Assembly: GCA_000091205.1 (NCBI GenBank)
Contig: AP006501.2
Length of the DNA stretch: 64,000 nucleotides
DNA from: Cyanidioschyzon merolae
Taxonomy: Eukaryota
Strand: one strand, 5' to 3'
Translations under genes and position numbers: made by a program
Shown: one piece after another, positions 7,966-63,600 of the stretch
Numbering within the stretch: the stretch's first letter is position 1
Layout: each line of letters starts with the position of its first letter
The notes under the pieces: generated by a model
What the model was told of the DNA's origin: nothing
Database searches by the model: none
Seen by the model: only the letters and a program-made list of their open reading frames with translations

Positions 7966-8286
7966 AAGAAGTGCCTTTCTGCGGAACACTGCGAACTGTT
8001 ATGGGTCCATGCGTCCACGCTGCACACGACCGTCGGTAGGACACGTGGCTGCACCGCGTTCCCCGTTCCAGTCCGGTCGATGCGGTACCGTCAACAACCG
8101 CACTGGAGACGTGCTCTTCCAGAGTTCTACCTACGCGTAAACTAAGACCGCGGCGGGTACGTGCGCTTCTTATGGACCCTCTGTGGGTACCCGGCAGAAC
8201 TCGCTAGCGGTCGGGTAACGAGCGCACCACTGCTACGGCTCCTGTACAGGGGCTTCGGCGACGGTGCCTGCGCACTCTCTTTTCTT

Positions 8287-8640
8287 TTCGCTCACCAAAC
8301 GTTTATGTTGTACCTGGATCCCTTATCGCGGGACGAGAACTGGCTATCGGGAAAACGCCCATCGTGATACGCCTCACCCTCAAGTTCCATTCCTTACAAT
8401 TCCTTTCGGATGTACTGGTCGTTTCATAGGTTGTAGCGAGCATCGAGTGCCCGTCGTGCTGCATCCACCTTGGCGCCTAGACAGCTGGTGCAGATGCACC
8501 TTAGAGACAGAACGGCTTTGCCGTACCACTGGGGGCTTCGGCTCGAGATGTGGTGCACCTGACACGGATTCGGAGTCCATCATCATGCTGGGGGCCTGGA
8601 AACTGCGCTGAAAGAGCTACCGTCTGCGGCAGCTCGAAGC
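8287..8640 (+). repeat. conserved ~300-nt structured module (copy 1). Candidate omega-RNA scaffold, element end or MITE
   Basis: Homologous to 38985-39338, 51556-51835, 56320-56620 (reverse complement) and partially to 18700-18790. Conserved core ggtgcagatgcacc ttagagacagaacgg ... gggcttcggctcgag, containing a hairpin GGTGCA-GA-TGCACC and a UUCG-type loop. Confidence 0.6.
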
Positions 8641-11616
8641 GACATGCCGGGAGTCCACTGCGACCAGGGCGACGCCCAGACGCAGCCTAACTGCTGCTCC
8701 TAGTCCCAGAGTCGACTGCGTTGCGGACGAGGTGTTCAGGTCGCACCACTGCACTAGGCACAGGTAAGGGCGTGAAGCACTAGTCTTGCAGACTCGTTCG
8801 GATTGCGGGACGTTTCGCCCTGAAGGCAAACTTTCGAAAGTATGGAAACCTTTTCGCCCTTTTAACGGCTACCGTGGAATGGGACAGGAATCGTTACATC
8901 GTTTCTCGTGAATCGTTCGTCTCTTTCCTTTTTTTCTCCGAATAGCGCGGTCGATAAGCACACCTGCGAGATCACGCAGTCACGAGAGACGACGCGCATG
9001 TCGCCGATGAAGGGAAACGCGTTTCTAACTATGCTCTGACCTATTGCCCTACCGTACATGTTGTATTCGAATTACAGGCGTAGCGGAGTACAGTTTTTTG
9101 AGTTCAATCGCGTTTGAAACGTCAAGTAAGCATATTCAAGTGATGCTGTGCGGTGTATAGGAGAAGCGTTCAATGTGCGTTCTTTCGCAGAAAAAATTCT
9201 AAAAAAGGAAAGTTATGAGAAAGCAAGTCGACGATCGCGGAGGCGCAGTGTCGCCGGCTGCCAGAAAAAGAACGAAAAACGGTGCCGAGCCCAGGAGCAC
9301 AGGCAAAGACGATGAAGCAGAAGCGGGAGGCCCTACGTCAAAGGCCGCGGGAAAGACAACAGTACGACGAGACGGTGGTGAAAGCGTACCTTCGTAAACA
9401 TATCAAGGATGCCTACAAGGAAAAGTTGCGAGAGGCCATCAGAAACCGTGTCGAGTCGTACTCCACGAGTACGAAGAAGGCTTCGTCAGGACTGATGCAT
9501 ATGATGAACGAGATGCACGACAACGCGACGGACACCAGAACAGTCGAGGTTCCGGGGGAATTTTTCAACAAGACCTTTGCTCGTCACCTGATGGTCGGCA
9601 CAGGGGAGCCGTCGACAAACAATGAGCGAGTGCACGCCTTCCACGAAAACTTCGCGGGATTCGGCTTCGAAGGTGCATCGATACAAGGGTTACGGGGATA
9701 TTCACATCTACGGGCCGATCGAGTACCTCGCGAACCTGAGGAACCATTTGACCATGAACCTCGAAGGTTTCATGATAAGCGCCGTGTTTGCGCTCTACCG
9801 GGGCCTCTCTCGCGGGGAAGAGATGGGCCATCTTCGCTGCCATCACCAACGATCGTCAGCATGAACAGGCAATAGAATTTGTCGACAAGATGACATCACG
9901 CAGGAGCATGAATGAAGCATATGTGATCGGTGCAGCTATTCAAGAGCGTCGTGGTGACACGGAGGTAGGGGGTTGGATAGATACTTCACCTCGCACTGAA
10001 AAAATATCACAAAAAGTAAGGAAAGTAAAATGCGCATAATCGGAGAACGCTGGCCCAAGTAAACGTTTTGTCCATGGAAAAAAAGAGCATCGTGAAGTCT
10101 TGGGGCTGGCCAACCCGACAGAAGACGTGTCAGATATGAAAAAAGTGAGAAAAGATGGTACCCCCGCATCCTGCGCTACTTCGTGTGTCTGGACCGAGAA
10201 CTCGAACGCAAGGCGGAGATGGTGCTGGGTGTGTGGAAAAATGAAGAGTCGCGGAGACGGAACGCTTTCCCAATGGGGAAGTGCTTCAACGTGGTTCCAA
10301 TGAGCAACATCAAGTCACATTTTGTGACTATCGACCAAGGCGTCCACTACGGCAACATGAGTGAGATCAGTCCGGTGTTCGGTGTCAGCAGGGAGGAGTT
10401 CACCGGTGAAAATCGGGAGACGTACCGGAAGAGTCTCTTCGGTTTCAAACGTCTCAAAGTGAGCAAGCAGAAGGTATTCACGGGGATGATCGGAACCGAT
10501 GGCGTAGCCACGTGTGTACGCTATCGGAGGTTTGAAGGCGGATTGTCCAGTTCGGCCTTCGATATCGCCCGTGACGAAGCATGAAGAAAACAGGGAGGAG
10601 GATCCTGCCACACAGAAAGTGCAGGATAACGACTTTGTCGTTGACGCGACGAAGCGTGAAGATGAGATGGAGGCGGGTCCTGCTACGCAGAAAGTGCAGG
10701 ATAACGACTTTGTCGTTAGTGCGGATCCCGGGAACACAAATATCATAACCATCGCAGTACCCAAGCGTGCGGAAGATGGTATCAACGGCAACCTACGTCA
10801 GACGGCCCTGCGAGTTTTAAGGTTCTCGTGAGCGGGATGCTATCGAGAATCCGGTATGATCAATGCGAGGAAGAAAATTGAGACACGGAATGCAGGAATG
10901 AAGGATCACCTGGAAGCTTTGCGCGGAGTAACGAGCAGAGGAGCAGGCTTTGAAGCTTTTCCGATATTCATGGAAGGTCGCGTTGCTCATTGGGATGCGC
11001 TGCTGGAGGAGTATACAAAGCCCCGGTGGGCTCGTCTGCGTATGAATCTGTACGGTGGTAAGCAGCGGGCATTCGCCAAATTTTTCAGTCAGTTGAGTGC
11101 CTTGAAGGAGGACGAGAGCCAGAGGCTGGTAGTGGCATACGGAGCAGGGCGTCCACAAAAGGGTGCACACCAGCTCCGTCGACGAGAACGTACAAAGCGT
11201 GTGCACGGCGCTTTGTAATGATACCGATTGATGAGCTCCGAACGTCCTATACACACCACGAACTGGGGTGCACACTTGAGACGGTCGACATGGAAAAGTG
11301 CCAGCGGAGTCCTGAAGATATGAAAAAGTATGGAGCGCTAACGGAGGAGCAAATGGACAGGAGGGCGAAAGTTCGTGGACTACTCGCATTAGTAAGTACA
11401 ATCAATGGCAAGAAACGCATGGAAATTGTTAACCGCGACTTTAACGCGGCTACCAATATAAGGAGGTGCGCGGTGATGGAGAGAAGACCTCCGTACTTGA
11501 CAAGAGGGAATTTTGTAGGGAAACCTCTCGAGGTGGAATTATACGAGAAAAAGTTGAAACCGGTAGTAGGTGGCCGGTCCAAAAACACTGGGATGCGTCG
11601 ACAAGTCTGTAGAAGA
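8287..11616 (+). mobile_element. Fanzor/TnpB-like (OMEGA RuvC nuclease) element, copy 1. Contains a 5' structured ~350-bp module and a frame-disrupted ~800-aa Fanzor-like gene
   Basis: About 99% identical to 38985-42308. Encodes RuvC-I-like [16 protein letters not shown], a TnpB-like DELRTSYTHHELGC (vdp.YTSq.C) and the RuvC-III signature NRDFNAATNIRRCAV. All family copies share a 3' terminus about 20 nt after the GGRSKK codons. Confidence 0.65.
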
Positions 11617-11628
11617 CTTTTCGTCTAG
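9215..11628 (+). pseudogene. Fanzor1-like TnpB-family nuclease gene, copy 1. It is frame-disrupted, with an extra in-frame TGA near 10829 that is absent in copy 2
   Basis: Consecutive ORFs 9215-9397, 9282-9875, 10183-10584, 10514-10831, 10856-11218 and 11218-11628 sit in different frames. N-terminus is K/R-rich and NLS-like (KRTKNGAEPRSTGKDD). RuvC-I is near 10709 and RuvC-III NRDFNAATNI near 11430. Confidence 0.55.
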
Positions 11629-12118
11629 GGCGCCGGTCACCACTACTTTGCACTACCGACCACAGCGTTTTTCTTTAGAAAGGCGTTTTTTGTCGGCGAT
11701 GTGAGGATTCTTTTACATGCTTAAAGTACTGCGTCAACCAGATCGAGTCCGTGTCTCGAGCTGAGCACTTCCGGTAGCGTCTGGTCGTCGGCCATTTGGG
11801 AGCACGCGCCCTAGACGAGCATCGTGTGTGTGGCATTACCTGTGTGGACCAGGTTTGTCAAGGGAAACAATTTCACGCTGAGTTCCAAAAGTTCGGTCCT
11901 TGTGTATTTTTGCTTGCCAGGAGCACAGGTCACCAGCAAGGAAGTTCGTGATCAGATACTGCCAAGATCCGACGAGTCGTGTAGCATCGTCCCGGAGATG
12001 TTAGGGCAGGCCCCCGAGCTACCACTCGCAAGCCACGCATTCGCCTCGCAGGTACGTGAATCATCGACAAGAAGCCGGATTCAATGGCACATCCTGAACA
12101 TCTCAGCAAATCGTGATC

Positions 12119-14323: not shown

Positions 14324-15675
14324 CCGCGTAGAATGAAACTGGAACAATGTTCCGCTCGCTCTGCACTCGTCTTGCGATTTGATTCGCAAAAGTTCTTGGA
14401 TGCACAGCATCGATACGCCAAGTGCAGCAACAACGGCTTACGGACTCAAACGTAGTTTTCGGGATTCTCGGTCGGGCGTTTTTCTCTCGGAGTGACCTGT
14501 TCGTCGTCCATTCACCGCTGGAATGCGTTCCGTCGCCAGATTCATGTTGAGTCGCGCCACCCTCGAACCAGCGTCCCTGGCATAACCTATTTTATGATCG
14601 AATGCATTGGGGCAAGCATCCATTCTTCTGATTTTTTCAAGTATGGGATGCTCAAATCGCGCATTCCTCAATATGTCGTATCTCTATGTTTCGGGGCCAT
14701 TGGTGGATGCAGCGATTCGCGGCCCCGGATTCACGACGGCTCAAGAGACGCGATGTCGTCTCCTGGACGCTTGTGCACCAGCTGATGCCCAGAGTTCGCC
14801 GCAATGGTCTCAGGTCAAACGATCGCTTCCGTTCGAAGCACGAGTCCGCCGCTCTGCACGGCTATCGACGAAACATCGTCCGGCAGCAACACGAGCCTCT
14901 CACGGGATATGCATTCGAAGGCTCCCATCGCTTTCATTTGCATGAACAGCGGTCTTGGACTCGGAGTCGAGACGTCGCAGGAATCGCGGCCAGTGGAGCG
15001 CTCGGTACCGTACGGCACGAGCGGGACGTTGACGGATCCAAGGCGTTTTGGCCTGCTTGCCGGCCTGGACTTGACGCTTACGGTACTTGTTGCACGGTGG
15101 ACGGCATCGCGTTCCCTAAACCCTCCTTCGGATGGAACGCGCTGCACTTGCGCGTGCAGCGCACACCGTACTCGCCGATGCGATCTGCCCTGACTAGCGC
15201 CCGTGATCGTAGCGTACGGCACCGGGCGCGGAAACGGCGGAGCGCATACAGGGGATCCCGCGGTACCCGTCAAGACCGTGTATCGAGCGATGAAGCGCGC
15301 CTTCAGATGACGCAGTGCAGGGTGTGGCGGAGAACGTGCCGCGCGCACACAGGAACTCGTGATACGAGTCAGGAGTCACGGCTGCACCCCAGGAAGGCTC
15401 GTGAATCGCAACTTGCGCCTGTACATGAAGTGCGTCGACGATACCGGGGAGCTGCGAAATCGGGACGTGCACGTTGGCCTCAACATCGTTCAACAGCTGA
15501 CGTCGGAGCTGGATGTGCGGGAGGTACCGGCGTTTATCACTCTGCAGGGAATTCGGAGAAAAGAAAGAGGCAGGCACAGAAAGCGCACGACGACGACGCA
15601 TGGATACGTAGCAATCGGAAGAATCGGGAAAGATAGGTTGTGGGCGCGAGATTCACCTCGTGGACCTGTCAAGAT
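14324..15675 (+). repeat. 1.35-kb inverted-repeat arm A (partner 19528-20878)
   Basis: Coordinates map as x to 35202-x with near-perfect identity. ORF pairs 14686-15636 and 19566-20516, and 14438-14671 and 20531-20764, are identical. Identity breaks sharply at both ends. Confidence 0.85.
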
Positions 15676-18114: not shown

Positions 18115-18699
18115 GGTGTTCGCTTATTGCCTCTGAGCGAGTAGTGATTCGTTCCGTTAACAACACAGCGTTGCCGCGGACACAACGCTCGATCGTTGGT
18201 CTATCCAGAAAGAGGAGATCCGCCAGCCTGCAGCGAAGCGATGTTTCCTCCTGTCGTGTGCAAACACTCTGAAGCGCAACTCGTGGACGATTGGAGACCG
18301 GCGCGAATGCGACGCTGCGGACGGCACGACGAGGCGGTGTGTCCATTTATTACCATCTCGTACCATCTTTTCCTTTTATGGACTTATTTGGATCAGATGG
18401 AATCGTCCTGCACGACGAGGTGTCGTGTCCTTTGATTGCAAGTTTATCTGATTTGTTTCGTTCATTACAAAGATGTAAAAGATATCTTTCGTAGTCCCTG
18501 CATGTGCGTTCCGCTTATGCGTGTGTGACACCAAATTCATGCCGACCTGTGAGCTCAGATCGCGCACTCGATACCCGTGGTTGGGAAGGTGTCCATGATT
18601 CTAAGCCCCGCCTCCATGTTCGATGACCTACACTTCTCCTCGGCGACACTAACTGTTTCGTATGCTCCATTGTACGCCGGGCCTTCACGAAGCGGTCTC

Positions 18700-18790
18700 A
18701 TGAGCGCCTAACAGCGCCTGTGCGGAGGTTGCTCGGAGACAGAACGGCTCTGCCGCACGACCGGGGAGGCCGGCTCGAGCATACATGTTT
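18700..18790 (+). repeat. partial, diverged copy of the conserved structured module core
   Basis: ggagacagaacggctctgccgcacgaccggggaggccggctcgagcatacatg aligns to the module core ttagagacagaacggctttgccgtaccactgggggcttcggctcgagatgtggtg. Confidence 0.4.
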
Positions 18791-19527
18791 CATGAATGGC
18801 TCATTCGGATCCGCATTCGTCGCTGCGATTGCCCATGAAGAGCTGCGCTGCGCTTGGTGACTGATTTCTATGCACTCTCTCCGCAAACTGAAGAAAACAC
18901 GCCTGCAAGGTTGCAGTGACGGTGTCGCATTGATAAATAGCATACATTCTACTTTGCACCCGTCAAGCCGTCACAACGCAGATGATGCCGTACCGGACAC
19001 CTGAGGTCACTGGCATCAGGACGCATAAGGAGCGTGTAGCTAATCTCAGCGCGCTATGCGCAACCGCGCGGCTCGCCAAGAGAGCACCAACGCTGCACGA
19101 ATCGGGAAGATGCGGCACGCGGGTACACATGCACGTGGCATCGCGATGACTCTGTCCGCGAGTGGACAGATCGAGTATGGGGAGACATGCCCCGCCATCG
19201 CACCTAATGCAAGGCCTGTATTAGGGATCAATACCCATTTCTGCGCCCGTGGAAGCATGTGCATATTGTCCAGGGCGTTTCTGTAAAAGCTCTGAGAGCG
19301 CACAATTGTGCAACCATCCTGTACATGAAGTCACCAGTCAATAAGTCCCAGTACGAAGTATCGACCGAGACTCGAACTGTGCAGGATCGTACATGCTATT
19401 GGCGTGTTCGTCCTCGTTTTTCGTGCGGCAGAGCCGTGGAACTTGCCTCACGAGTATTCACGCTGCCAGGTACATCATATCTGCGAGGGTTCCAGTCAAG
19501 CCCAGCCTACATCTATGCCGGGATCAA

Positions 19528-27864: not shown

Positions 27865-28135
27865 TAATATCCACTCACAGGCACCCCGCAGCCTTTTTCG
27901 ACCAGCCCCCTGTTATCGGCTTCAGCTTCTCTCCGTACACTTCGAGCCCGAGAGGCTACCCCACGGAGTTGGATGGCGCCAGCTCCTCGGATCTCGTCTT
28001 CAGCACTAGACATCATCTCATCTTGATGGCGGCGTTGAAGTCTCGGTTCACAAACTCCTTGCATCCATTGCCGCTGGTGGAACACATTCATGCAAGGATT
28101 CCTTGAACTCGCGCCCTCTATGCCATTACAGTCTC
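27865..28135 (-). pseudogene. degenerate Fanzor/TnpB C-terminal fragment (RuvC-III NRDFNAA retained, then a stop)
   Basis: Reverse-strand translation gives RVQGILA*..NGCKEFVNRDFNAAIKMR*. The sense ORF 27846-28106 matches the antisense of Fanzor copy 1 (HLILMAALKSR vs HLLILVAALKSR). The 3' end ggctggtcgaaaaaggctgcggggtgcc aligns to the family 3' terminus. Confidence 0.55.
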
Positions 28136-28786
28136 GTAATCCTTCTATTGGGCAAACATATTTTTGTTTGCCTATCTCCCCTCCCCCTCTTCCTTTTCGA
28201 TATATGCTCTTCTTCACTCGTTAGTCGGCAAGAACAGAAACGTTTATGTGTTTTTCCTGCAGCCCGTAATGAAGGCCCTCCACCATCCCCGACTTCCATG
28301 TCCATACCTCTCCCTTGTATTTTTCATTTCTTCAAATGAACGTACTTCGAACACATCTGCTATAAACAGCGAATAAGCGTTTGATGATACGCTTCTTGAG
28401 ATGGAACCTAAATGAATCGAAAGAGTAGAGGAGCCAGACGGGTATGAGGTCGAAACTAATCTGAAACAATTTAGTATAAAATTTGCAACTGCGGTACGCT
28501 GGACCCCCGCGATCGCTATGAAGCGTTCCCCGAAATCATTTTCATACCAGTAATTCTCTTACTTTAACCAGAGGCCAGACTTGGCGCGGTACGAGATTCT
28601 CAGGCTCTTCCTCTAAGTTTCTCAGTGGAACAGGGACCGACGGCGTCACTGTTGCTGTTGCGGAAGAGTCCGAGCTCGTGCTTCGTCTGTGGCTTTCGGA
28701 CGCGAAACACTTGTTGCTAACAGGCAGCTCACACACACGCACAGGAGCGTACCAGTGCTCCGCGACGTACGGTGATACTCGACTGC

Positions 28787-31137: not shown

Positions 31138-32327
31138 ATTGTTTGACTCGGAATAATGAATTCTGAAACACCTGCATCAGCACGCCCTGTTTGTTTTTTC
31201 TACGGGTATTCAAGAGGAGTGTATCTTGCACACCGGAGAAAGGTCGCCGAACGACCTTATGTCGTCACTGCTTCCTCATGAGAAAGCCCGCTTTACTAGT
31301 GCACGGCAGACATTCTCCGGACAGCCTCGCTTCACACACGAACAAGGCTCTCTGCAAAAAGAAGCCCTTTACAGCAATACAGACCCGTCCCGGACTCCGA
31401 GCGCCCTCGCGCCCCCATCACTGGCATCGGGGTACGACGGGCACCAGGCGGCACACCGGCATGTAGAGTGACGGTGCAAGGACCGTTCTCACCGGCCTGC
31501 GTAGCGTATCCAGCAGAGGCGCACGCCTTCTCGGCTTTATTCAGAGGTCGTCCGTGAGCGTCCAGACGTCTCATGCGGACGCTCTTCGGCATGTATGCAT
31601 GAGACTGCGCTGGGCGGTCGCCAATGGTTTCGGTTGTACGCAGACAAGACGGGTGCGTTCCCCAAACGGCTCAGTGACGTGGGAAAGGAAACGACTGAGC
31701 AGTCGCGTCGTCCGGTGGGGAGCCCCATCGAGCGGCACCCGACGCGGCGCACGAGGCCTGTGATCCCGCTTCATCGACCGGAGCTTCCCGCGGGAGCAAG
31801 CATCGACGCTGCACTGTGCCCATCGATGCGTTCAGGGCGTTATGCAAGCGGCACCAGCACGGGCACACGCTGAGGCGGGCACAGAAGAAGAGCGCGAAAC
31901 ATGCGCGCTCGGATGCACCGGATGGTAAGCGATAAGCAGCGTGCACGTCAGACGCAGAGCCAATCGCAAGTGAGCGGCTCGATATCGCGTGATCCAGCAA
32001 GCAACCATGCGCGCAAGCACTCTCTGCATCACGACTTTAATGCCTCGGGCGACATCCGGGACTGTCTGATGCATCGAGAGCATCCAGTGAGTATTACGTC
32101 GAGCGAACCTTGCGGCAATCGTTTGGTACCCAGTGGGCGCATTCTGCTGCAATGCTGCGGATATCCGTCAAACAGAATACGAATCCATGGGAGAGCGGCA
32201 TGTTTTGCCTTGGTGGATCACGGCACTGGTGTGGTGCTGCTCAGCAATGCGGAAAGCATTGAGCGCGGTACGGATACTCTGGGGACGATTTGCGTCCGCA
32301 ATATCTGAAAGACAATAATGTTTCAAT
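31138..32327 (+). repeat. 1.19-kb direct repeat, copy A (partner 35204-36393)
   Basis: About 97% identity at a constant offset of 4066 bp. Many ORF pairs are identical (for example 31191-31466 and 35257-35532). No RT/integrase and no TG..CA LTR termini seen. Confidence 0.8.
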
Positions 32328-35203: not shown

Positions 35204-36393
35204 ATTGTTTGACTCGGAATAATGAATTCTGAAACACCTGCATCAGCACGCCCTGTTTGTTTTTTCTACGGGTATTCAAGAGGAGTGTATCTTGCACACC
35301 GGAGAAAGGTCGCCGAACGACCTTATGTCGTCACTGCTTCCTCATGAGAAAGCCCGCTTTACTAGTGCACGGCAGACATTCTCCGGACAGCCTCGCTTCA
35401 CACACGAACAAGGCTCTCTGCAAAAAGAAGCCCTTTACAGCAATGCAGACCCGTCCCGGACTCCGAGCGCCCTCGCGCCCCCATCACTGGCATCGGGGTA
35501 CGACGGGCACCAGGCGGCACACCGGCATGTAGAGTGACGGTGCAAGGACCGTTCTCACCGGCCTGCGTAGCGTATCCAGCAGAGGCGCACGCCTTCTCGG
35601 CTTTATTCAGAGGTCGTCCGTGAGCGTCCAGACGTCTCATGCGGACGCTCTTCGGCATGTATGCATGAGACTGCGCTGGGCGGTCGCCAATGGTTTCGGT
35701 TGTACGCAGACAAGACGGGTGCGTTCCCCAAACGGCTCAGTGACGTGGGAAAGGAAACGACTGAGCAGTCGCGTCGTCCGGTGGGGAGCCCCATCGAGCG
35801 GCACCCGACGCGGCGCACGAGGCCTGTGATCCCGCTTCATCGACCGGAGCTTCCCGCGGGAGCAAGCATCGACGCTGCACTGTGCCCATCGATGCGTTCA
35901 GGGCGTTATGCAAGCGGCACCAGCACGGGCACACGCTGAGGCGGGCACAGAAGAAGAGCGCGAAACATGCGCGCTCGGATGCACCGGATGGTAAGCGATA
36001 AGCAGCGTGCACGTCAGACGCAGAGCCAATCGCAAGTAAGCGGCTCGATATCGCGTGATCCAGCAAGCAACCATGCGCGCAAGCACTCTCTGCATCACGA
36101 CTTTAATGCCTCGAGCGACATCCGCGAATGTCCGGTACTTCCAGAGCATCCAGTGAGTATTACGTCGAGCGAACCTTGCGGCAATCGTTTGGTACCCAGT
36201 GGGCGCATTCTGCTGCAATGCTGCGGACATCCGCCAAACAGAATACGAATCCATGGGAGAGCGGCATGTTTTGCCTTGGCGGATCACGGCACTGGTGTGG
36301 TGCTGCTCAGCAATGCGGAAAGCATTGAGCGCGGTACGGATACTCTGGGGACGATTTGCGTTGGCAATATCTGAAAGACAATAATGTTTCCAT
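35204..36393 (+). repeat. 1.19-kb direct repeat, copy B (partner 31138-32327)
   Basis: See copy A. The 2.9-kb spacer carries the RimM-like and MRG genes. Confidence 0.8.
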
Positions 36394-38860: not shown

Positions 38861-38984
38861 GGCTTGATCGTCACCAGTTGCTACCAGTACGCACTGTTGT
38901 TCGCCAAACGATCGAGAGGCGACGTCGATGAGCGCGTCAGCATCTGGCAATCGCGCCGACGCGCTCGAGTCGGTGACTTTTTTC

Positions 38985-39338
38985 GCTCACCAAACGTTTA
39001 TGTTGTACCTGGATCCCTTATCGCGGGACGAGAACTGGCTATCGGGAAAGCGCCCATCGTGATACGCCTCACCCTCAAGTTCCATTCCTTACAATTCCTT
39101 TCGGATGTACTGGTCGTTTCATGGGTTGTATCGAGCATCGAGTGCCCGTCGTGCTGCATCCACCTTGGCGCCTAGACAGCTGGTGCAGATGCACCTTAGA
39201 GACAGAACGGCTTTGCTGTACCACTGGGGGCTTCGGCTCGAGATGTGGTGCACCTGACACGGATTCGGAGTCCATCATCATGCTGGGGGCCTGGAAACTG
39301 CGCTGAAAGAGCTACCGTCTGCGGCAGCTCGAAGCGAC
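38985..39338 (+). repeat. conserved structured module, copy 2
   Basis: Near-identical to 8287-8640. Confidence 0.6.
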
Positions 39339-42308
39339 ATGCCGGGAGTCCACTGCGACCAGGGCGACGCCCAGACGCAGCCTAACTGCTGCTCCTAGTC
39401 CCAGAGTCGACTGCGTTGCGGACGAGGTGTTCAGGTCGCACCACTGCACTAGGCACAGGTAAGGGCGTGAAGCACTAGTCTTGCAGACTCGTTCGGATTG
39501 CGGGCCGTTTCGCCCTGAAGGCAAACTTTCGGAAGTATGGAAACCTTTTCGCCCTTTTAACGGCTACCGTGGAATGGGACAGGAATCGTTACATCGTTTC
39601 TCGTGAATCGTTCGTCTCTTTCCTTTTTTTCTCCGAATAGCGCGGTCGATAAGCACACCTGCGAGATCACGCAGTCACGAGAGACGACGCGCATGTCGCC
39701 GATGAAGGGAAACGCGTTTCTAACTATGCTCTGACCTATTGCCCTACCGTACATGTTGTATTCGAATTACAGGCGTAGCGGAGTACAGTTTTTTGAGTTC
39801 AATCGCGTTTGAAACGTCAAGTAAGCATATTCAAGTGATGCTGTGCGGTGTATAGGAGAAGCGTTCAATGTGCGTTCTTTCGCAGAAAAAATTCTAAAAA
39901 AAGGAAAGTTATGAGAAAGCAAGTCGACGATCGCGGAGGCGCAGTGTCGCCGGCTGCCAGAAAAAGAACGAAAAACGGTGCCGAGCCCAGGAGCACAGGC
40001 AAAGACGATGAAGCAGAAGCGGGAGGCCCTACGTCAAAGGCCGCGGGAAAGACAACAGTACGACGAGACGGTGGTGAAAGCGTACCTTCGTAAACATATC
40101 AAGGATGCCTACAAGGAAAAGTTGCGAGAGGCCATCAGAAACCGTGTCGAGTCGTACTCCACGAGTACGAAGAAGGCTTCGTCAGGACTGATGCATATGG
40201 TGAACGAGATGCACGACAACGCGACGGACACCAGAACAGTCGAGGTTCCGGGGGAATTTTTCAACAAGACCTTTGCTCGTCACCTGATGGTCGGCACAGG
40301 GGAGCCGTCGACAAACAATGAGCGAGTGCACGCCTTCCACGAAAACTTCGCGGGATTCGGCTTCGAAGGTGCATCGATACAAGGGTTACGGGGATATTCA
40401 CATCTACGGGCCGATCGAGTACCTCGCGAACCTGAGGAACCATTTGACCATGAACCTCGAACGTTTCATGATACGCGCCGTGTTTGCGCTCTACCGGGGC
40501 ATCTCTCGCGGGGAAGAGATGGGCCATCTTCGCTGCCATCACCAACGATCGTCAGCATGAACAGGCAATAGAATTTGTCGACAAGATGACATCACGCAGG
40601 AGCATGAATGAAGCATATGTGATCGGTGCAGCTATTCAAGAGCGTCGTGGTAACACGGAGGTAGGGGGTTGGATAGATACTTCACCTCGCACTGAAAAAA
40701 TATCACAAAAAGTAAGAAAAGTAAAATGCGCATAATCGGAGAACGCTGGCCCAAGTAAACGTTTTGTCCATGGAAAAAAGAGCATCGTGAAGTCTTGGGG
40801 CTGGCCAACCCGACAGAAGACGTGTCAGATATGAAAAAAGTGAGAAAAGATGGTACCCCCGCATCCTGCGCTACTTCGTGTTTCTGGACCGAGAACTCGA
40901 ACGCAAGGCGGAGATGGTGCTGGGTGTGTGGAAAAATGAAGAGTCGCGGAGACGGAACGCTTTCCCAATGGGGAAGTGCTTCAACGTGGTTCCAATGAGC
41001 AACATCAAGTCACATTTTGTGACTATCGACCAAGGCGTCCACTACGGCAACATGAGTGAGATCAGTCCGGTGTTCGGTGTCAGCAGGGAGGAGTTCACCG
41101 GTGAAAATCGGGAGACGTACCGGAAGAGTCTCTTCGGTTTCAAACGTCTCAAAGTGAGCAAGCAGAAGGTATTCACGGGGATGATCGGAACCGATGGCGT
41201 AGCCACGTGTGTACGCTATCGGAGGTTTGAAGGCGGATTGTCCAGTTCGGCCTTCGATATCGCCCGTAACGAAGCATGAAGAAAACAGGGAGGAGGATCC
41301 TGCCACACAGAAAGTGCAGGATAACGACTTTGTCGTTGACGCGACGAAGCGTGAAGATGAGATGGAGGCGGGTCCTGCTACGCAGAAAGTGCAGGATAAC
41401 GACTTTGTCGTTAGTGCGGATCCCGGGAACACAAATATCATAACCATCGCAGTACCCAAGCGTGCGGAAGATGGTATCAACGGCAACCTACGTCAGACGG
41501 CCCTGCGAGTTTTGAGGTTCTCGAGAGCGGGATGCTATCGAGAATCCGGTATGATCAATGTGAGGAAGAAAATTGAGACACGGAATGCAGGAATGAAGGA
41601 TCTCCTGGAAGCTTTGCGCGGAGTAACGAGCAGAGGAGCAGGCTTTGAAGCTTTTCCGATATTCATGGAAGGTCGCGTTGCTCATTGGGATGCGCTGCTG
41701 GAGGAGTATACAAAGCCCCGGTGGGCTCGTCTGCGTATGAATCTGTACGGTGGTAAGCAGCGGGCATTCGCCAAATTTTTCAGTCAGTTGAGTGCCTTGA
41801 AGGAGGACGAGAGCCAGAGGCTGGTAGTGGCATACGGAGCAGGGCGTCCACAAAAGGGTGCACACCAGCTCCGTCGACGAGAACGTACAAAGCGTGTGCA
41901 CGGCGCTTTGTAATGATACCGATTGATGAGCTCCGAACGTCCTATACACACCACGAACTGGGGTACACACTTGAGACGGTCGACATGGAAAAGTGCCAGC
42001 GGAGTCCTGAAGATATGAAAAAGTATGGAGCGCTAACGGAGGAGCAAATGGACAGGAGGGCGAAAGTTCGTGGACTACTCGCATTAGTAAGTACAATCAA
42101 TGGCAAGAAACGCATGGAAATTGTTAACCGCGACTTTAACGCGGCTACCAATATAAGGAGGTGCGCGGTGATGGAGAGAAGACCTCCGTACTTGACAAGA
42201 GGGAATTTCGTAGGGAAACCTCTCGAGGTGGAATTATACGAGAAAAAGTTGAAACCGGTAGTAGGTGGCCGGTCCAAAAAGAATGTGAGGCATCTGCACG
42301 TCGACTGG
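38985..42308 (+). mobile_element. Fanzor/TnpB-like element, copy 2 (more intact than copy 1)
   Basis: Same structure as copy 1: 5' module, NLS-like N-terminus, Ruv[18 protein letters not shown] near 41404-41451, and NRDFNAATNI near 42126-42155. Its left end is about 125 bp upstream of the 6PGDH ATG, and its right end about 150 bp upstream of the isoamylase ATG. Confidence 0.65.
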
Positions 42309-42344
42309 AGGCGCATTGTCGAAAGCGCGCCGCGCTCCCGTTAA
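39911..42344 (+). pseudogene. Fanzor1-like TnpB-family nuclease gene, copy 2. It has about 3 frame breaks and no internal stop in the 41209-41913 segment; either a recent pseudogene or intron-interrupted
   Basis: ORFs 39848-40093, 39978-40571, 40878-41279, 41209-41913 and 41913-42344. The C-terminal segment reads MIPIDELRTSYTHHELGYTLETVDMEKC...GKKRMEIVNRDFNAATNIRRCAV. HHELGY here versus HHELGC in copy 1. Confidence 0.55.
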
Positions 42345-42455
42345 GCGCCAGTGCGCAGAAGAATTTCCTTCGGTTTCGAGGTATATTGAGAAGGGTCGCG
42401 TTCGTTCTGTGTAGAAAGCTGGACTGTGGCGACTCTCTCGGTCAGTTTTAAAGTT

Positions 42456-45798: not shown

Positions 45799-45907
45799 AT
45801 GCATGCATGCATGCATGCATGCAAAAACACGTGTCTATGCGAATGAAAGCACGCATGGTATCGAAGCTTTTCACGTATGTGAGTGCATGCATGCATGCAT
45901 GCATGCA
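45799..45907. repeat. paired (CATG)n/(TGCA)n microsatellite blocks in the convergent intergenic region
   Basis: gaatgcatgcatgcatgcatgcatgca and, about 60 bp on, gtgcatgcatgcatgcatgcatgcac seen directly between the isoamylase (+) and PWP2 (-) 3' ends. Confidence 0.8.
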
Positions 45908-46090
45908 CTCACAAACGCGTAGCCATAAACATAAAAACCAATAACACTGAGGTCTACATGATTTTACCGCAGCGGCTTCGAGGCTATCGGCAAGCGCAGC
46001 AAGTCGTAGCGGTATGCACATGGTACATAGCCACAAAGCGCGGTATCAGCACCGGCTGAGACGAGAGCTGCTTTCGCATGCCCTTCTCTC

Positions 46091-51404: not shown

Positions 51405-51555
51405 ACGGCTGTTGCCCTGCGCGTCCTATTGTACGTTCCCAGGGCGACACGTCCCGCGAACCCCGCTGGCTCACAGAAGCAGAAACCGGAGGGGTGCGCT
51501 CCACGCTGCCGGATCCGCCTCCGCGTCGAGCACATCGCTGCGTTTTTGCTCAGTT

Positions 51556-51835
51556 TTACAGAATGTTTCCATGGACTAGGGATACCAGATTGCGGGATGG
51601 ATATTGGCATTCGGGAGTGTGCCCATCATGATGCAACCTATGCTCAAGTTCCATGATGCATACTTTTTCTCGGGGGTGTACTGGTCGATTTGAATGTTGT
51701 ATCATGCGGCGAGTACCTGCCTTGCTGCAGCCGCTATACCGCCTATACCGCTGGTGTGGATGCAACCTAGAGACAGAACAGTTTTGCTGTATCGCAGAGG
51801 GCTTCGACTCGAGAATGTAAACTTAACCTTCTCAA
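51556..51835 (+). repeat. conserved structured module, copy 3, directly abutting the 3' end of a reverse-strand Fanzor fragment
   Basis: Aligns over about 280 bp with 8287-8640 (ctcaagttccat ... ggtgtggatgcaacctagagacagaacag ... ggcttcgactcgag). It lies about 150 bp upstream of the FAD synthetase ATG. Confidence 0.6.
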
Positions 51836-52260
51836 AGGCGCCTCTCGGCCTTTTTCGACCGGCCACCTGCTATCGGATTGAGTTTCTTTCTGTGCATATC
51901 GAGCCTGAGAGGCTGGCCCACAAAGCTGAATCGCATCAGCTCCTGGGGTCTCGTATCCAATACCGCACATGGTCTGATTTTGATGACGACGTTGAAGCCT
52001 CGATGCACAAACTCCATGCGTTTCTTTCCTCTGATGGAACGCAAAAGTGCTAGGATTCCGAGAACTCGCGACCTCTCTCCGATTCCAATCGCGCCATCGT
52101 CCCACAGGGCAAACTCCTTTTCTCGCCCATCTCCCTGTTCTTCTTCTTCTTCGTCACTTGCCCTTCTTCGCTCGATCGTCAGCGATGAGAGGTGTTTTCC
52201 CCTTTTTTCGTCTGCCAGCAATAACCACCAACCAGGATTCCCGACTTTTATGTCCATATC
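51836..52260 (-). pseudogene. degenerate Fanzor/TnpB C-terminal fragment (RuvC-III motif decayed: RDFNAATNI replaced by RGFNVVIKI)
   Basis: ORF 51832-52257 (-): ...LALLRSIRGKKRMEFVHRGFNVVIKIRPCAV...RKKLNPIAGGRSKKAERRL. This aligns with copy 1 LALVSTINGKKRMEIVNRDFNAATNIRRCAV...KKLKPVVGGRSKN. Nucleotide ggtggccggtcgaaaaagg matches ggtggccggtccaaaaa. Confidence 0.6.
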
Positions 52261-52679
52261 CTTCCCTTAGATTGTCACCTTCGTCAAAATGAACGCACTT
52301 TGCGTATATCTGCTATGAGCGGAGAATAGACCTTTGATGACACGCACTTGCAGGTTTTTTCATGGACAAAACGTTTACCTAGGCCAGCGTTCTCCGATTA
52401 TGCGCATTTTTCTTTTCTTACTTTTTTTGTGTTATTTTTCCAGTGCGCGGGAAAGTATCTGTCGAACCGCACGCACTTGCAGGTGGAACGCAATTGAGTT
52501 GAACGGTCATGAGCGCAGCACCTGGACGCCGCTTCCGCTGCGCTCCGCAGCCGCTGGCGATCGACGGCGGCTGCGGCGGCGGCCAAATGGCGAGCACAGC
52601 AGTCTCGTTGGCGTGAAGCGCGAGCATTTCTTCTCTCGAAGAGCTTTTGTTGGGAACGTTGTGCCCTTCCTGGACGGAC

Positions 52680-55483: not shown

Positions 55484-56319
55484 GAGCGGCTGGTTCTTGC
55501 TATTGGCGCTCGCCGAGAGCTCGGAGACAGCGTTTACCTTCGATTTTAGCGGCCGTACGTGCAACCGCCTTCCATGCTCCCCTGTACGAAAGCGCTGCCT
55601 CCGTAAACGCACACCGCTGCAACGTCTGCGCAGCGTTTGGCGCGAGCCGCTAGGCGAACCGTGCCGGCCCTTCCAGAAAAAACGTCCCGGAATCCCAAAG
55701 AGTATACCAGTCGTTCCAATGACGCTATTTAGAATTCGCTGAGTTGAAACGTTACCCGTGGACACGTCCAGTGTCTCCGTTCCGGAGCGAGTGATAGAAG
55801 CGCGCTTCGAGCAACGCAGTCGCCAGCGGAGGCACTGCATACAAAAGCTGCAATACAAAGGATTGTCTGCGATGCGCAATCGCCATGCGCTGTGGAGTCG
55901 TCACAGAGAAGGACAGGCACTGCCCATTTACTAATTGCGACTGTTCCAAATGAAGACAAGTCGCCAGGAACTAGCAACTAGATAACATTTCGTTCCACCT
56001 TCATGGTAAGCGTTGCAAAAGGGGAACTTTTTCCGTATTTTCGAAAGATTACCTTCGAGGCGGAAAGTCCCTCGCGCCAGACGAGTCTGCAGGGTTGGTG
56101 CTTGAAGCTATTCCCAGCGGCGGGTACAGTGCCGAGACCTCATTAGCTCGTCCACAACGCAGTTATTTTGGGACTTGGGGCGCCAAGGCTGCATCCAGGT
56201 ATTGGCTTGGTCGCAGTGGTCCCCTAACATATCGGTCCGTGCTGTCGCAAGCAGTATTTCTGGCTGCGCAGCTTGCAGGCTCCCAAATTGATGTTGAGTC
56301 CTGATTCTGTGACTTGTGA

Positions 56320-56620
56320 ACCATGACGCGAGTCGAAGCCCTCTGCGATACAGCAAAACTGTTCTGTCTCCATGTTGCATCCACACCAGCGGTATAGGCG
56401 GTATAGCGGCTGCAGCAAGGCAGGTACTCGGCGCATGATACAACATTCAAATCGACCAGTACACCCCCGAGAAAAAGTATGCATCATGGAACTTGAAAGT
56501 AGGTTGCATCATGATGGGCACACTCCCGAATGCCAATATCCATCCCGCAATCTGGTATCCCTACTCCATGGAAACATTCTGTCAACCAAAAGAATCGTCG
56601 TGCGGTCGATTGGCGCGCTG
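56320..56620 (-). repeat. conserved structured module, copy 4 (solo, inverted relative to copy 3, which lies 4.5 kb away)
   Basis: 56320-56620 is the reverse complement of 51556-51835 at about 95% identity. It ends exactly at the ctcgag motif with no adjacent Fanzor sequence. Confidence 0.6.
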
Positions 56621-61409: not shown

Positions 61410-63189
61410 TCAGATAAAATGTCTATTTTGTCCAGAGAACGCAGTGAATGCCGGAACATCTGAACATGCACACCCTTTTTGATCGTATTTGCTGTTCTCG
61501 TAGGTATTCAACAGAAGGAATCTATTCTGTGAATTGGAGAAAAGTTGCGAATAGAGTTTATGCAACCGTCGCCAGCCGGCGTGAAAGAAGACTTTTCGAG
61601 TCAGTCATTCGACGGTTAGAAGCTGGTTAGGGCACGATCCTCATCGACCTTTTCCTAAGCGTCATGCACCCTGGGCAGAAGTTATCAAAGTATACGCATA
61701 GAAAAGAATCCTCTTGAATCCGCACGCTCTCTATGAAAAATCAGTAAAGATGCCAGAGGATGTAGAGCTTCTCTGGCTTTCATACAAACCGGAATAGATA
61801 CGGATAGCCGTTGAAAAATGCACGTTTCTGTGGAAGAACGTCGTGCGATATACCACACGCGATCGACGTGGCATCGACACGCGAACGCTTCGTATACCAA
61901 GGACAGGTGTTCGTTTCCATCGATGATATATTGTGTATTATAATTGGTAGATCCGTATATACGTACTCCAAGATAGGCAAGCGATCGTCCGTAAACAAAT
62001 GATCAGCGAGCATTCCAGCAACTTCTGCACCAGCGGCGATCCAGCGGGTACTCGCCTGGAAATCGCAAAAAGGGCAGGGTCGTTCCACACCTCATTCCTC
62101 GTAGAGGCACCCTGCGAGGTTTCTCTTTGTTGCATTCCTCCGTCCTGCTGTTGGACAACAAAGATTTCCACCACTCGTCAGCAGTCAAAGAGTACGCACC
62201 TGGCATTGTAGCTGAGCTGCACTTTATGCAAGCCTATTCTCCATAGTTCTTACCAGTTGAAGGCATCTTCTGTGGTTTCAAACGTCCTTTGTATGTTCAC
62301 AGATCAATAGACGAGCGTTTCGTATCCGCGGCACTGAAGCTCTCCAGTAAGCTAGTATCTGCATTTTGCAGCCCTGAACTTCTGTGTGGCTTGATCGCTC
62401 GTGCGCGCGACGGTACGGAAGCACCATCTCGATACCCTCCTCCGTTTCTGCGCTCAGTGTCGTACCCGACGATCAAGGGCGTTTTCCGGGCGATGACCCT
62501 GGCAAGCGCTCAGTCCAATATAGGTGCAAGCGTACGCTATTTCATTCGATAGAGGATTTGGGGAACGTGATGTTTTCCATGATGAGACAGGCGCCGAAAA
62601 CAAATTCCAGGCTAGAGATCAAGTCAAAAAGCTCGATCCCTCTACGCTTCCTCTACTGGGCGCAACCGCTGCGGTCACTAATGTCCGCGTCCCAGGCTCT
62701 TGTCCATGCAATCCGAAGAGATGAGAGCCCGTCACGGCCTATACTGTGCGAGGTACAATGGTGCTGTCGAAAGCCATGTGTCCTATGCCCCAAAATTAAG
62801 AAGGATTGGTCTATCGAACATAGGGACTAAGTTGACAAGAAAAATTCAGCAATCTTTTGGCATGAGCTTGTGAACCAGCTTTCAAAAGTCCGTATCGCGT
62901 TTTTCGTTCCTTCGTCACTCCAGTGGCAAGAATCGCTGCGCTCACGAGTTGCCTAGAAACAGCAAGATTGGAAACGTGAAGCATGCATCAATTGAGCACA
63001 CCATATGTATGGAATGGGCAAGCATAGAGGCTCTTACATGAGCGTTGGATCATGATATCGGTCATGTTCTGATCCTCTCTTGAGGGCGTCGGGAATCATC
63101 CTGATGCCGCTGACCTACGTCTTCGTGAAACGAGAACGGTTTCACGACCGTGGAGAGCAAATTCGGACTGAATCGTAGGGATGCCTCCC

Positions 63190-63600
63190 AGCCGTTTTTG
63201 ACCGGCTGCCATATTCTCGATCCAGTTTTTGTCCAGGTAAACTTCGAGCCAGGCAGACTGCCCCACAAAGTTACATCGCGTCAGCTACGCGGGTTTCGTC
63301 ATTAGTACCATAAATCGTCTCATGTGGATGATGTTCTTCAAGTCTAGGATCACAAACTCCATGCGTTCGTTGCATCTAGTTGAACTCACTAGTCCAAAGA
63401 TTCCTCGAACTCGAGCGCGCAGTGCCATTTGGTGCTCTGTCAGCTCTGCGCGCTTTTCTGTCGCAGAATCGCTCCGCCGGCTCTTCTCCATTTCGTTCCT
63501 CTGAAGTATACGCCCCAGTTCATCCATTAGATTTTCTCTTTCGTCAAGCGAACATACTTCCTCACGCTCTTAGGTCAGGAGTTTCCCAGAGGATCGAAAG
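63190..63600 (-). pseudogene. degenerate Fanzor/TnpB C-terminal fragment (zinc ligands and RuvC-III decayed)
   Basis: ORF 63285-63527 (-): MDELGRILQRNEMEKSRRSDSATEKRAELTEHQMALRARVRGIFGLVSSTRCNERMEFVILDLKNIIHM. This aligns with copy 1 HELGCTLETVDMEKCQRSPEDMKKYGALTEEQMDRRAKVRGLLALVSTINGKKRMEIVNRDFNAATNI. The 3' nucleotides ggcagccggtcaaaaacggctgggaggcatcc match the family terminus. Confidence 0.55.

Follow-up and report, generated by a model that had tools for sequence, protein, structure and literature searches.

Introduction

The closest described relatives of the sequence considered here, a non-coding module at positions 8287–8640 of a 64,000-nucleotide stretch of Cyanidioschyzon merolae DNA (GenBank assembly GCA_000091205.1, contig AP006501.2; hereafter the window) which heads a unit carrying a degraded Fanzor gene, are two repeats reported from the same alga by Bao and Jurka (2013, PMC3627910). 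One of these, CMe-1A, is a Fanzor1 element of ~3 kb present in ~150 copies, the 5' 635 bp of which is 95% identical to the entire second repeat, TE-N2_CMe, itself present in ~70 copies; neither was found to have terminal inverted repeats, target-site duplications 'could not be determined', and the class of both was given as unknown. The same family had been listed by Nozaki et al. (2007, PMC1955436) as 253 transcribed interspersed repeats of 3.2 kb, equivalent to ~5% of the C. merolae genome, each with a truncated open reading frame (ORF) resembling WSV486.

Two further systems are relevant to any account of such a module. The Fanzor1 elements CRe-1, CRe-2 and CRe-3 of Chlamydomonas reinhardtii, regarded as non-autonomous Helitron2 elements, have one intact end, a truncated opposite end, and duplications of 7–19 bp beside TTTT (PMC3627910). 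The omega-RNAs of Fanzor, as also those of TnpB, come from the 3' or right end of the element with the guide lying beyond it (PMC10432273), and are kept, along with both inverted repeats, by the 'ghost' ORF-less Spu-1 elements (Saito et al. 2023).

Set against these accounts, the module is almost certainly the first half of the terminal segment at the fixed end of CMe-1A / TE-N2_CMe. The host is the same, the unit is ~3 kb long with a Fanzor1 ORF, its 5' 635–665 bp is common to an ORF-less element, terminal inverted repeats are absent, old copies are ~64–80% identical, and transcribed copies number in the hundreds; no structural difference was apparent, the comparison being with the published description rather than with the Repbase consensus. 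The physical linkage of the module to Fanzor ends, proposed in an initial annotation made from the letters of the window, is accordingly real, but since the family had already been published the module as a Fanzor-linked repeat was already known, and its recognition here is a rediscovery. What is added to the published account comprises duplications of 10–20 bp, a fixed end marked by a T-run, and a series of truncations, which together constitute the first evidence that this unclassified C. merolae Fanzor family makes target-site duplications and inserts by one end with truncation. The best overall explanation, assigned a probability of about 0.55, is that the module is the terminal segment of a known family that inserts by one obligatory end, most probably via reverse transcription.

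Extent and identity of the copies in the window

Copies in the window were located by blastn and by nhmmer with a profile built from three copies, and were recovered at or near each of the positions originally noted. The two Fanzor units are designated u1 and u2, the other module copies c3, c4 and c5, and the Fanzor remnant at 51831–52345 B51. The homologous unit has a sharp start at 8282, evident in copies 1 and 4 and in 26 copies from related contigs, and extends for ~620–665 nt rather than the ~300 nt first supposed, the solo, ORF-less copies having ~665 bp in common with the Fanzor-linked copies before the two diverge. In u1 this TE-N2_CMe-like 5' arm occupies 8282–8943 on the plus strand, as delimited by blastn, nhmmer, the sharp 5' boundary of the family alignment and the point of divergence of the solo copies; it opens with a T-run followed by CGCTCACCAAACGTTTAT, and the module as first delimited is its first half.

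The whole CMe-1A-type element u1 spans 8282–11687 (plus strand), and the equivalent u2 spans 38979–42302 (plus strand), with its 5' arm at 38979–39638 and a diverged Fanzor 3' tail running to ~42390. In both, as had been proposed, the 5' terminus of the duplicated Fanzor unit is indeed the module. It is a terminal segment of one end only, however, and not the terminal repeat also envisaged, since no terminal repeat, whether inverted or direct, links 8282 to the 3' end of u1 near 11687. Comparison by blastn gave 99% identity both for the arms (8285–8900 against 38980–39595) and for the units (8285–11607 against 38980–42302). The identity between u1 and u2 ends abruptly at 11607, ~80 nt short of the element end, beyond which u1 11608–11687 and u2 42303–42390 are far more diverged Fanzor 3' ends in the same register; this abrupt break suggests that the identical tract is a product of gene conversion, in which two old, dispersed copies took part, and not of fresh transposition.

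The remaining copies are more diverse. The ORF-less copy c4 lies on the minus strand at 55890–56594, its module-homologous part being 55983–56594, and is 69% identical to u1 over 572 bp (8282–8848 against 56594–56030); a possible 12-bp target-site duplication (10/12) flanks it at ~56595–56606 and 55878–55889. Copy c3 (51555–51814, plus strand) is truncated at model position 269, just past CTCGAG, and is 97% identical to c4 (51555–51811 against 56585–56329) and ~71% identical to copy 1; despite the near identity of their bodies, the T-rich tails of c3 and c4 differ. The adjacency to a Fanzor 3' end stated in the initial annotation is confirmed, c3 and the minus-strand Fanzor 3' remnant B51 adjoining tail to tail. 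An isolated core fragment had been noted at 18700–18790, and although a copy was indeed present there (18736–18779, 44 nt) it proved to be part of c5, an old diverged copy covering model positions 21–294 at 18536–18808 (plus strand), with weaker similarity persisting downstream. Identities between copies thus ranged over ~60–99%, as against the 70–95% previously estimated. The 14-mer GGTGCAGATGCACC occurs above chance frequency, but is confined to u1 and u2, which are 99% identical. Overlooked previously were three short, truncated members of the superfamily, at 52355–52469 (plus strand), 9954–10084 (minus strand) and 40649–40779 (minus strand).

A fixed end, variable truncation and target-site duplications

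Scanning metagenome contigs with a DNA pattern yielded 99 stretches, which represent 51 distinct module copies, some of them identical to the window; L-numbers denote the corresponding loci. In ~15 of the 51 a Fanzor ORF lies on the same strand 360–416 bp downstream of the arm, ~11 are full arms with no ORF, and the remainder are truncated. A second, 'core' subfamily has model positions 80–549 and the same terminal motif in common with the module. That motif, the most conserved of all and shared by both subfamilies, consists of a T-run of variable length, 3–9 variable nucleotides, and then GACAAAACGTTTAC.

The truncated copies are strikingly asymmetric: nearly all keep model positions 1–25 and lose the other end, with truncation points at 159, 179, 269, 273, 276, 294, 314, 341, 423, 524 and 552. 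Inserts of 115, 131, 236, ~270, ~280, 550, ~860 and ~3100 bp all share the fixed end, and target-site duplications of 10, 12, 12, 13, 13, 14, 14, 19 and ~20 bp directly abut the T-run. The clearest example in the window is a 115-bp truncated insertion at 52355–52469 (plus strand), which starts with TTTTTTCATGGACAAAACGTTTAC, interrupts a B-type element (see below), and is bracketed by an exact 14-bp duplication (14/14), CACGCACTTGCAGG, at 52341–52354 and 52470–52483. Equally informative is a nested 131-bp truncated insertion of a related 'core-family' element within the Fanzor ORF of u1 (9954–10084, minus strand), which when read on the plus strand ends ...GTAAACGTTTTGTCCATGG(A)7 and is flanked by 10-bp duplications (9/10) at 9944–9953 and 10085–10094, three other Fanzor copies serving as paralogous empty sites with a single GAGCACCGTG at the equivalent position. 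The same nested insertion in u2 (40649–40779, minus strand) was copied along with the 99%-identical tract.

Corresponding duplications were recorded for truncated copies on metagenome contigs, namely 12/12 at L063 (550-bp insert), 12/12 at L045/L097 (236 bp), 13/13 at L096 (~860 bp), ~20 bp at L084 (~280 bp) and 11/13 at L004 (~270 bp), and for full Fanzor elements of 3.1 kb at L098 (14/14) and L093 (18/19). Exact adjacent 11-mers are expected at ~0.0035 per copy, and four distinct cases were present among the 47 copies tested. In 'full-length solo' copies with the 3' end fixed at ~665 the duplications did not exceed the null expectation, and they surfaced only with a variable 3' end; one-mismatch long-distance candidates at L014, L018 and L056 were discarded as being at chance level.

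Since inserts with variable ends are bracketed by duplications, the truncated copies arose at insertion, and one-ended truncating insertion is considered very probable. The combination of one obligatory end, a variable opposite end and duplications of 10–20 bp accounts for the module being commoner than the Fanzor gene, for its place at the head of every Fanzor unit and for its solo occurrence. Among the possibilities raised by the initial annotation, an independent element resembling a miniature inverted-repeat transposable element (MITE) or a short interspersed nuclear element (SINE) came closest to the truth. Short, dispersed, ORF-less copies related to a longer element are indeed reminiscent of MITEs, but the module shares one end only and has neither a target-site duplication of fixed length nor terminal inverted repeats, the lack of which excludes a MITE; nor do the solo copies constitute a separate family, and they are best regarded as truncated derivatives of one and the same element. 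No head of the RNA polymerase III type found in SINEs (tRNA, 7SL or 5S) was detected by tRNA scan or Rfam.

Several other features of the metagenome contigs were recorded. Internal tandem triplications are present in some copies (L051:1731–1976, L059:2127–2260, L045 and L097), the repeated unit being either 112 bp, which includes the conserved core previously delineated, or, in L045 and L097, 65 bp of the terminal motif region. In L035 (478–1040) and L043 (12200–12750) a 'core-family' arm stands head to head with the 5' boundary of the Fanzor part, and since both break exactly where TE-N2-like solo copies end, the T-rich boundary (~8943 in u1) is a recurrent breakpoint. At L068 and related loci a Fanzor 3' end is followed in tandem by a module start; ~45 nt of unrelated sequence separates the two, which indicates insertion nearby rather than a shared terminus. 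Hot-spring contigs from JGI (Ga0078972, Ga0080006, Ga0123519, JGI24721 and others) are nearly identical to the strain 10D window, repeat insertions included, as at L044, L054, L057, L066, L071, L072, L076 and L090; such near identity points to close relatives of 10D in the samples, which could supply both filled and empty sites.

Candidate mechanisms of mobility

The most likely mechanism, at approximately even odds, is retroposition of an RNA antisense to Fanzor in the manner of a long interspersed nuclear element (LINE), for which we infer both the RNA intermediate and the LINE partner. Under this scheme a polyadenylated transcript antisense to Fanzor would serve as template for target-primed reverse transcription by the alga's own machinery for retrotransposons without long terminal repeats (non-LTR), with the module as the 3' end of the RNA (...G-UAAA-(~13 nt)-poly(A)). 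Each new copy would always contain the fixed end (the T-run plus GACAAAACGTTTAC), synthesis would end after a variable length, from 115 bp to 3.1 kb, the insert would be bracketed by a target-site duplication of 10–20 bp, and the solo and short copies would be 5'-truncated retrocopies.

Read on the minus strand, the fixed end takes the form ...GUAAACGUUUUGUC(N)3–9 followed by an A-run, abbreviated as GTAAACGTTTTGTC(N)3–9(A)n, in which the A-run is 2–13 nt long and abuts the duplication in 8–10 insertions. The polyadenylation signal of C. merolae is UAAA, located 3–35 nt (mean 17) before the cleavage site (PMC8831791), and in 39 copies UAAA lies at a median of 13 nt before the A-run, an agreement that carries little weight when taken alone. 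The tails vary in length and, in c3 and c4, differ on bodies of 97% identity, and the truncated copy at L084 has a 7-nt microhomology at its junction. A candidate source of enzyme is offered by the 26 non-LTR elements reported for the genome, three of them intact, with an intact reverse transcriptase (Nozaki et al. 2007). The likeness to LINE-mobilised poly(A) retroposons thus extends to a fixed end that carries a homopolymer tail, a correctly spaced poly(A) signal, 5' truncation of variable extent, variable duplications of 10–20 bp, junction microhomology and the lack of terminal inverted repeats; by way of contrast with SINEs, processed retrocopies and 5'-truncated L1, the C. merolae family has short tails, neither a polymerase III head nor an identified LINE partner, and a passenger Fanzor gene antisense to the RNA intermediate.

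A number of observations weigh against this explanation. The metagenome copies were sampled with a bias, the scan pattern lying at model positions 235–256 so that shorter copies were caught only by accident, and the duplications are without an A/T-rich nick-site signature. The T-run is short and in many cases broken, and L098, L096 and L093 almost lack it despite their clear duplications, while UAAA within 35 nt of an end is expected by chance in ~10% of sequences. Across the 854 kb examined there was no ORF for a reverse transcriptase, nor therefore any LINE whose 3' end could match, and the B-type Fanzor remnants, which have no T-run end, are a misfit to a simple one-ended model. The described carriers of Fanzor and TnpB genes are otherwise DNA transposons, and the putative RNA would be antisense to the Fanzor ORF. 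Lastly, the same signature in CRe-1, CRe-2 and CRe-3 was ascribed to Helitron2 one-ended transposition (PMC3627910).

That ascription supplies the principal rival, in which the family would be a non-autonomous DNA transposon moved by Helitron2-like rolling-circle 'one-ended' transposition, replication starting at the T-run end and stopping either at the 3' subterminal hairpin or prematurely, to give a truncated series with variable duplications. Such movement would accommodate the features held in common with the Chlamydomonas elements (a Fanzor1 passenger, one intact end, variable duplications and a T-rich junction), the classical role of Fanzor as a DNA-transposon passenger, the weakness of the T-run in some copies with clear duplications, and the presence in the full element of a subterminal hairpin 2–5 nt from the 3' end, with stems of differing sequence. 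The ends of the CRe elements, however, match bona fide Helitrons, and their intact end is the 3' end with TTTT outside the duplication, whereas in C. merolae the homopolymer lies upstream of Fanzor, inside the duplication and at the fixed end. Moreover, 5'-TC or CTRR-3' termini, asymmetric terminal inverted repeats and a 5' hairpin are all lacking, and no RepHel partner has been reported for C. merolae, for which Nozaki et al. (2007) list only eight bacterial-like transposase remnants; the variable-length homopolymer tail and the UAAA at poly(A)-signal distance would also be left unexplained. Helitron2-like movement is consequently judged unlikely, though it is the most serious competitor to retroposition. 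Doubtful to a greater degree is the proposal, compatible with any mobility model, that the arm is conserved as promoter and 5' untranslated region (UTR) of the Fanzor gene: the constant 360–416 bp separating arm and ORF in ~15 distinct elements and the transcription of the repeats (PMC1955436) are in keeping with it, but conservation is even throughout the arm without exceeding that of the remaining element, copies without an ORF are conserved to the same degree, and in L035 and L043 the Fanzor part adjoins an inverted arm.

Junctions at CTCGAG

Four independent copies (c3, L004, L084_906 and L084_9064) end at model positions 265–279, and the clustering of junctions at CTCGAG that had been reported is therefore genuine. 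It had been suggested on this basis that the module might be a site favoured by Fanzor elements for insertion or homing, a view to which the frequent nesting or adjacency of elements and the tail-to-tail facing of Fanzor 3' ends and modules (c3/B51 at 21 bp, L053 at 74 bp, L101 at 157 bp) also lend themselves. Two of the four copies (at L004 and L084), however, carry their own target-site duplications with no Fanzor adjoining, and must therefore have been truncated at insertion rather than cut by an incoming Fanzor. Furthermore, the rest of the module was not found on the far side of B51, the terminus of which is itself shortened at the junction; the tail-to-tail distances are unequal, the module break points differ (269, 617 and 328), and the duplications at other insertions have no common target sequence. 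The CTCGAG end is a truncation hot spot just past the palindrome described below, not a docking site for Fanzor, the c3/B51 junction joins two truncated elements, and the chance that the module is a homing target is very small.

Tests for coding potential and conserved RNA structure

The module is non-coding DNA, and in all likelihood neither a folded RNA gene nor an omega-RNA. A coding role was ruled out given that no frame stays open among the copies and that their substitutions display no 3-base periodicity. Searches of Rfam yielded no match to the whole window at the gathering threshold, nor to 8200–9300 at E ≤ 1, and a tRNA scan detected none. Taken singly, the 299-nt module folds worse than shuffled sequences on both strands (z = +1.57 and +1.01). 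RNAalifold applied to 26 full copies gave −7.6 kcal/mol across an alignment of 749 columns, covariation contributing +0.06, and the structure conservation index in sliding windows was 0–0.10 on both strands.

Some indication of structure came from the conserved core of the initial annotation (8434–8551), which is an ancestral imperfect palindrome of 35 pairs, pairing being better on the minus strand by virtue of G-U pairs. In a subset of seven closer copies the minus strand of this core reached a structure conservation index of 0.83 (z = −4.6), and in 37 copies 78.7% of cells in the 35-pair hairpin were paired, as opposed to 30–42% with slid partners. Shuffled controls, however, gave 77.5% paired cells, pairs changed on both sides numbered 13 against 12.9 in the shuffles (281 of 500 reaching this value), and RNAalifold predicted 0 pairs from the 37 copies. 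The consensus contains an imperfect palindrome, then, but selection for pairing is without support, and the structural covariation anticipated across copies received no compensatory backing from RNAalifold in 26–37 diverged copies. The hairpin GGTGCA/GA/TGCACC, described as perfect and conserved, exists only in the two near-identical copies, and the substitution pair offered as compensatory, GGCTTCGGCT versus GGCTTCGACT, comprises a G to A change that breaks a pair together with others that fall outside the stem. Covariation is an insensitive test in this setting because transposon copies decay neutrally after insertion. Conserved folding was at least equal in the Fanzor 3' region (structure conservation index 0.55–0.73), but a matched seven-sequence subset demonstrated that the index is strongly dependent on identity, and that region is therefore only a weak positive control.

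These results bear directly on the proposal that the module encodes a structured non-coding RNA under selection, such as the Fanzor omega-RNA scaffold. Its likeness to the omega-RNAs of Fanzor and TnpB and to the ghost Spu-1 elements is that of a non-coding, element-terminal sequence also present in ORF-less copies, and, in favour of the proposal, the 3.2-kb repeats are transcribed (PMC1955436). The module nevertheless lies 340–1000 nt upstream of the Fanzor ORF start, at the opposite end of the element from an omega-RNA, and has none of the conserved fold of the latter; the ghost elements differ in their retention of both inverted repeats and the omega-RNA itself. When this position is considered alongside the lack of an Rfam family, of excess folding energy and of covariation, and the folding of the Fanzor 3' region, a selected RNA encoded by the module is extremely improbable.

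The Fanzor gene and its derivatives

The gene downstream of the arm in u1 is a Fanzor1 pseudogene (9282–11631, plus strand), frameshifted and interrupted, in which the RuvC-like motifs ADPGNTN, DELRTS and NRDFNAATNI can still be recognised; the D / E-x-[TS][TS] / RD-x-NAA pattern of this remnant is that of a degraded TnpB/Fanzor-like protein. A protein search with the conceptual Fanzor returned 45 relatives (P0001–P0045) of 50–75% identity, all from hot-spring metagenomes, which in precomputed tables match only a weak domain-of-unknown-function model, PF26935. The Fanzor fold was not independently confirmed, neither Pfam hmmscan nor phmmer and profile hmmsearch against the PDB yielding a match, and an AlphaFold model of the ORF from a shallow alignment of 21 close homologues had a confidence (pLDDT) of 31, leaving the fold likewise unconfirmed. 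At the level of sequence, the ties between this family and characterised Fanzors are weak.

The 3' end of u1 has a subterminal hairpin, CGTTTTTC-TTTA-GAAAGGCG, at 11666–11685 (plus strand), beyond which related elements diverge within 2–5 nt; the stem is built from different sequences in different copies. Within the Fanzor coding region a ~75-bp tandem duplication (86%) at 10570–10717 in u1 and 41269–41412 in u2 encodes a repeated segment.

A recurrent internal-deletion derivative of ~520 bp, termed B-type, consists of the leader and, joined to it, the final ~330 bp of the Fanzor ORF, and has a 3' tail ending in a GGTA...CATGG...TACC-like palindrome. It was seen three times on the minus strand of the window, at 27874–28392 (a remnant with no module upstream), at 51831–52345 and at 63183–63560, and additionally at L083, L060, L063, L049 and other loci. 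The second of these, B51, is the element (5' leader plus ORF 3' end) that faces c3 tail to tail, and its 3' terminus is ~25–30 nt short relative to sister copies.

Neighbouring genes and other repeats

All seven of the window ORFs compared (7/7) matched exactly C. merolae 10D proteins in the range BAM82805–BAM82820, on a chromosome of 1.28 Mb, the locus tags among them including CMS206C and CMS509C. The window has a GC content of ~55%, and its ORFs are long, intron-free and eukaryotic, encoding among others an actin-like protein, 6-phosphogluconate dehydrogenase, glutamyl-tRNA synthetase (GluRS) and isoamylase. An inverted duplication of 1352 bp (14324–15675 against 20878–19527; 99.6% identity) encodes the 316-residue hypothetical protein CMS509C in each arm, and between the arms are located module copy c5 and the gene for ribosomal protein S3A. 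A direct duplication of 1190 bp (31138–32327 against 35204–36393; 98.7%) flanks RimM-like and alp13-like genes, and a near-perfect palindrome of 44 nt (95%) at 45874–45917 occupies the intergenic region between the isoamylase and WD40 genes.

Significance

The module reveals no new RNA and no new Fanzor accessory. What has been addressed is a gap dating from 2013, when CMe-1A and TE-N2_CMe were left unclassified with target-site duplications 'not determined': the duplications, single fixed end and truncation series now recorded constrain how a transposase-less Fanzor family multiplies in a very compact genome. It is conceivable, at slightly less than even odds, that the C. merolae Fanzor1 family, which makes up ~5% of the genome, owes its spread to mobilisation by LINEs, as a poly(A) retroposon derived from an antisense transcript, and is not spread as a DNA transposon. 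Were this so, the module would be the 3' UTR and poly(A) region of the antisense RNA, and the CTCGAG hot spot would be a point at which reverse transcriptase stalls beside a hairpin of ~75 nt. To our knowledge, carriage by a retroelement has not previously been shown for any RNA-guided OMEGA/Fanzor nuclease gene. Genetic work is feasible in C. merolae, and the mechanism is thus directly testable; if the RNA route is borne out, Fanzor genes can persist on retroelements, and the homing role proposed for them in DNA transposons would need to be rethought in this lineage.

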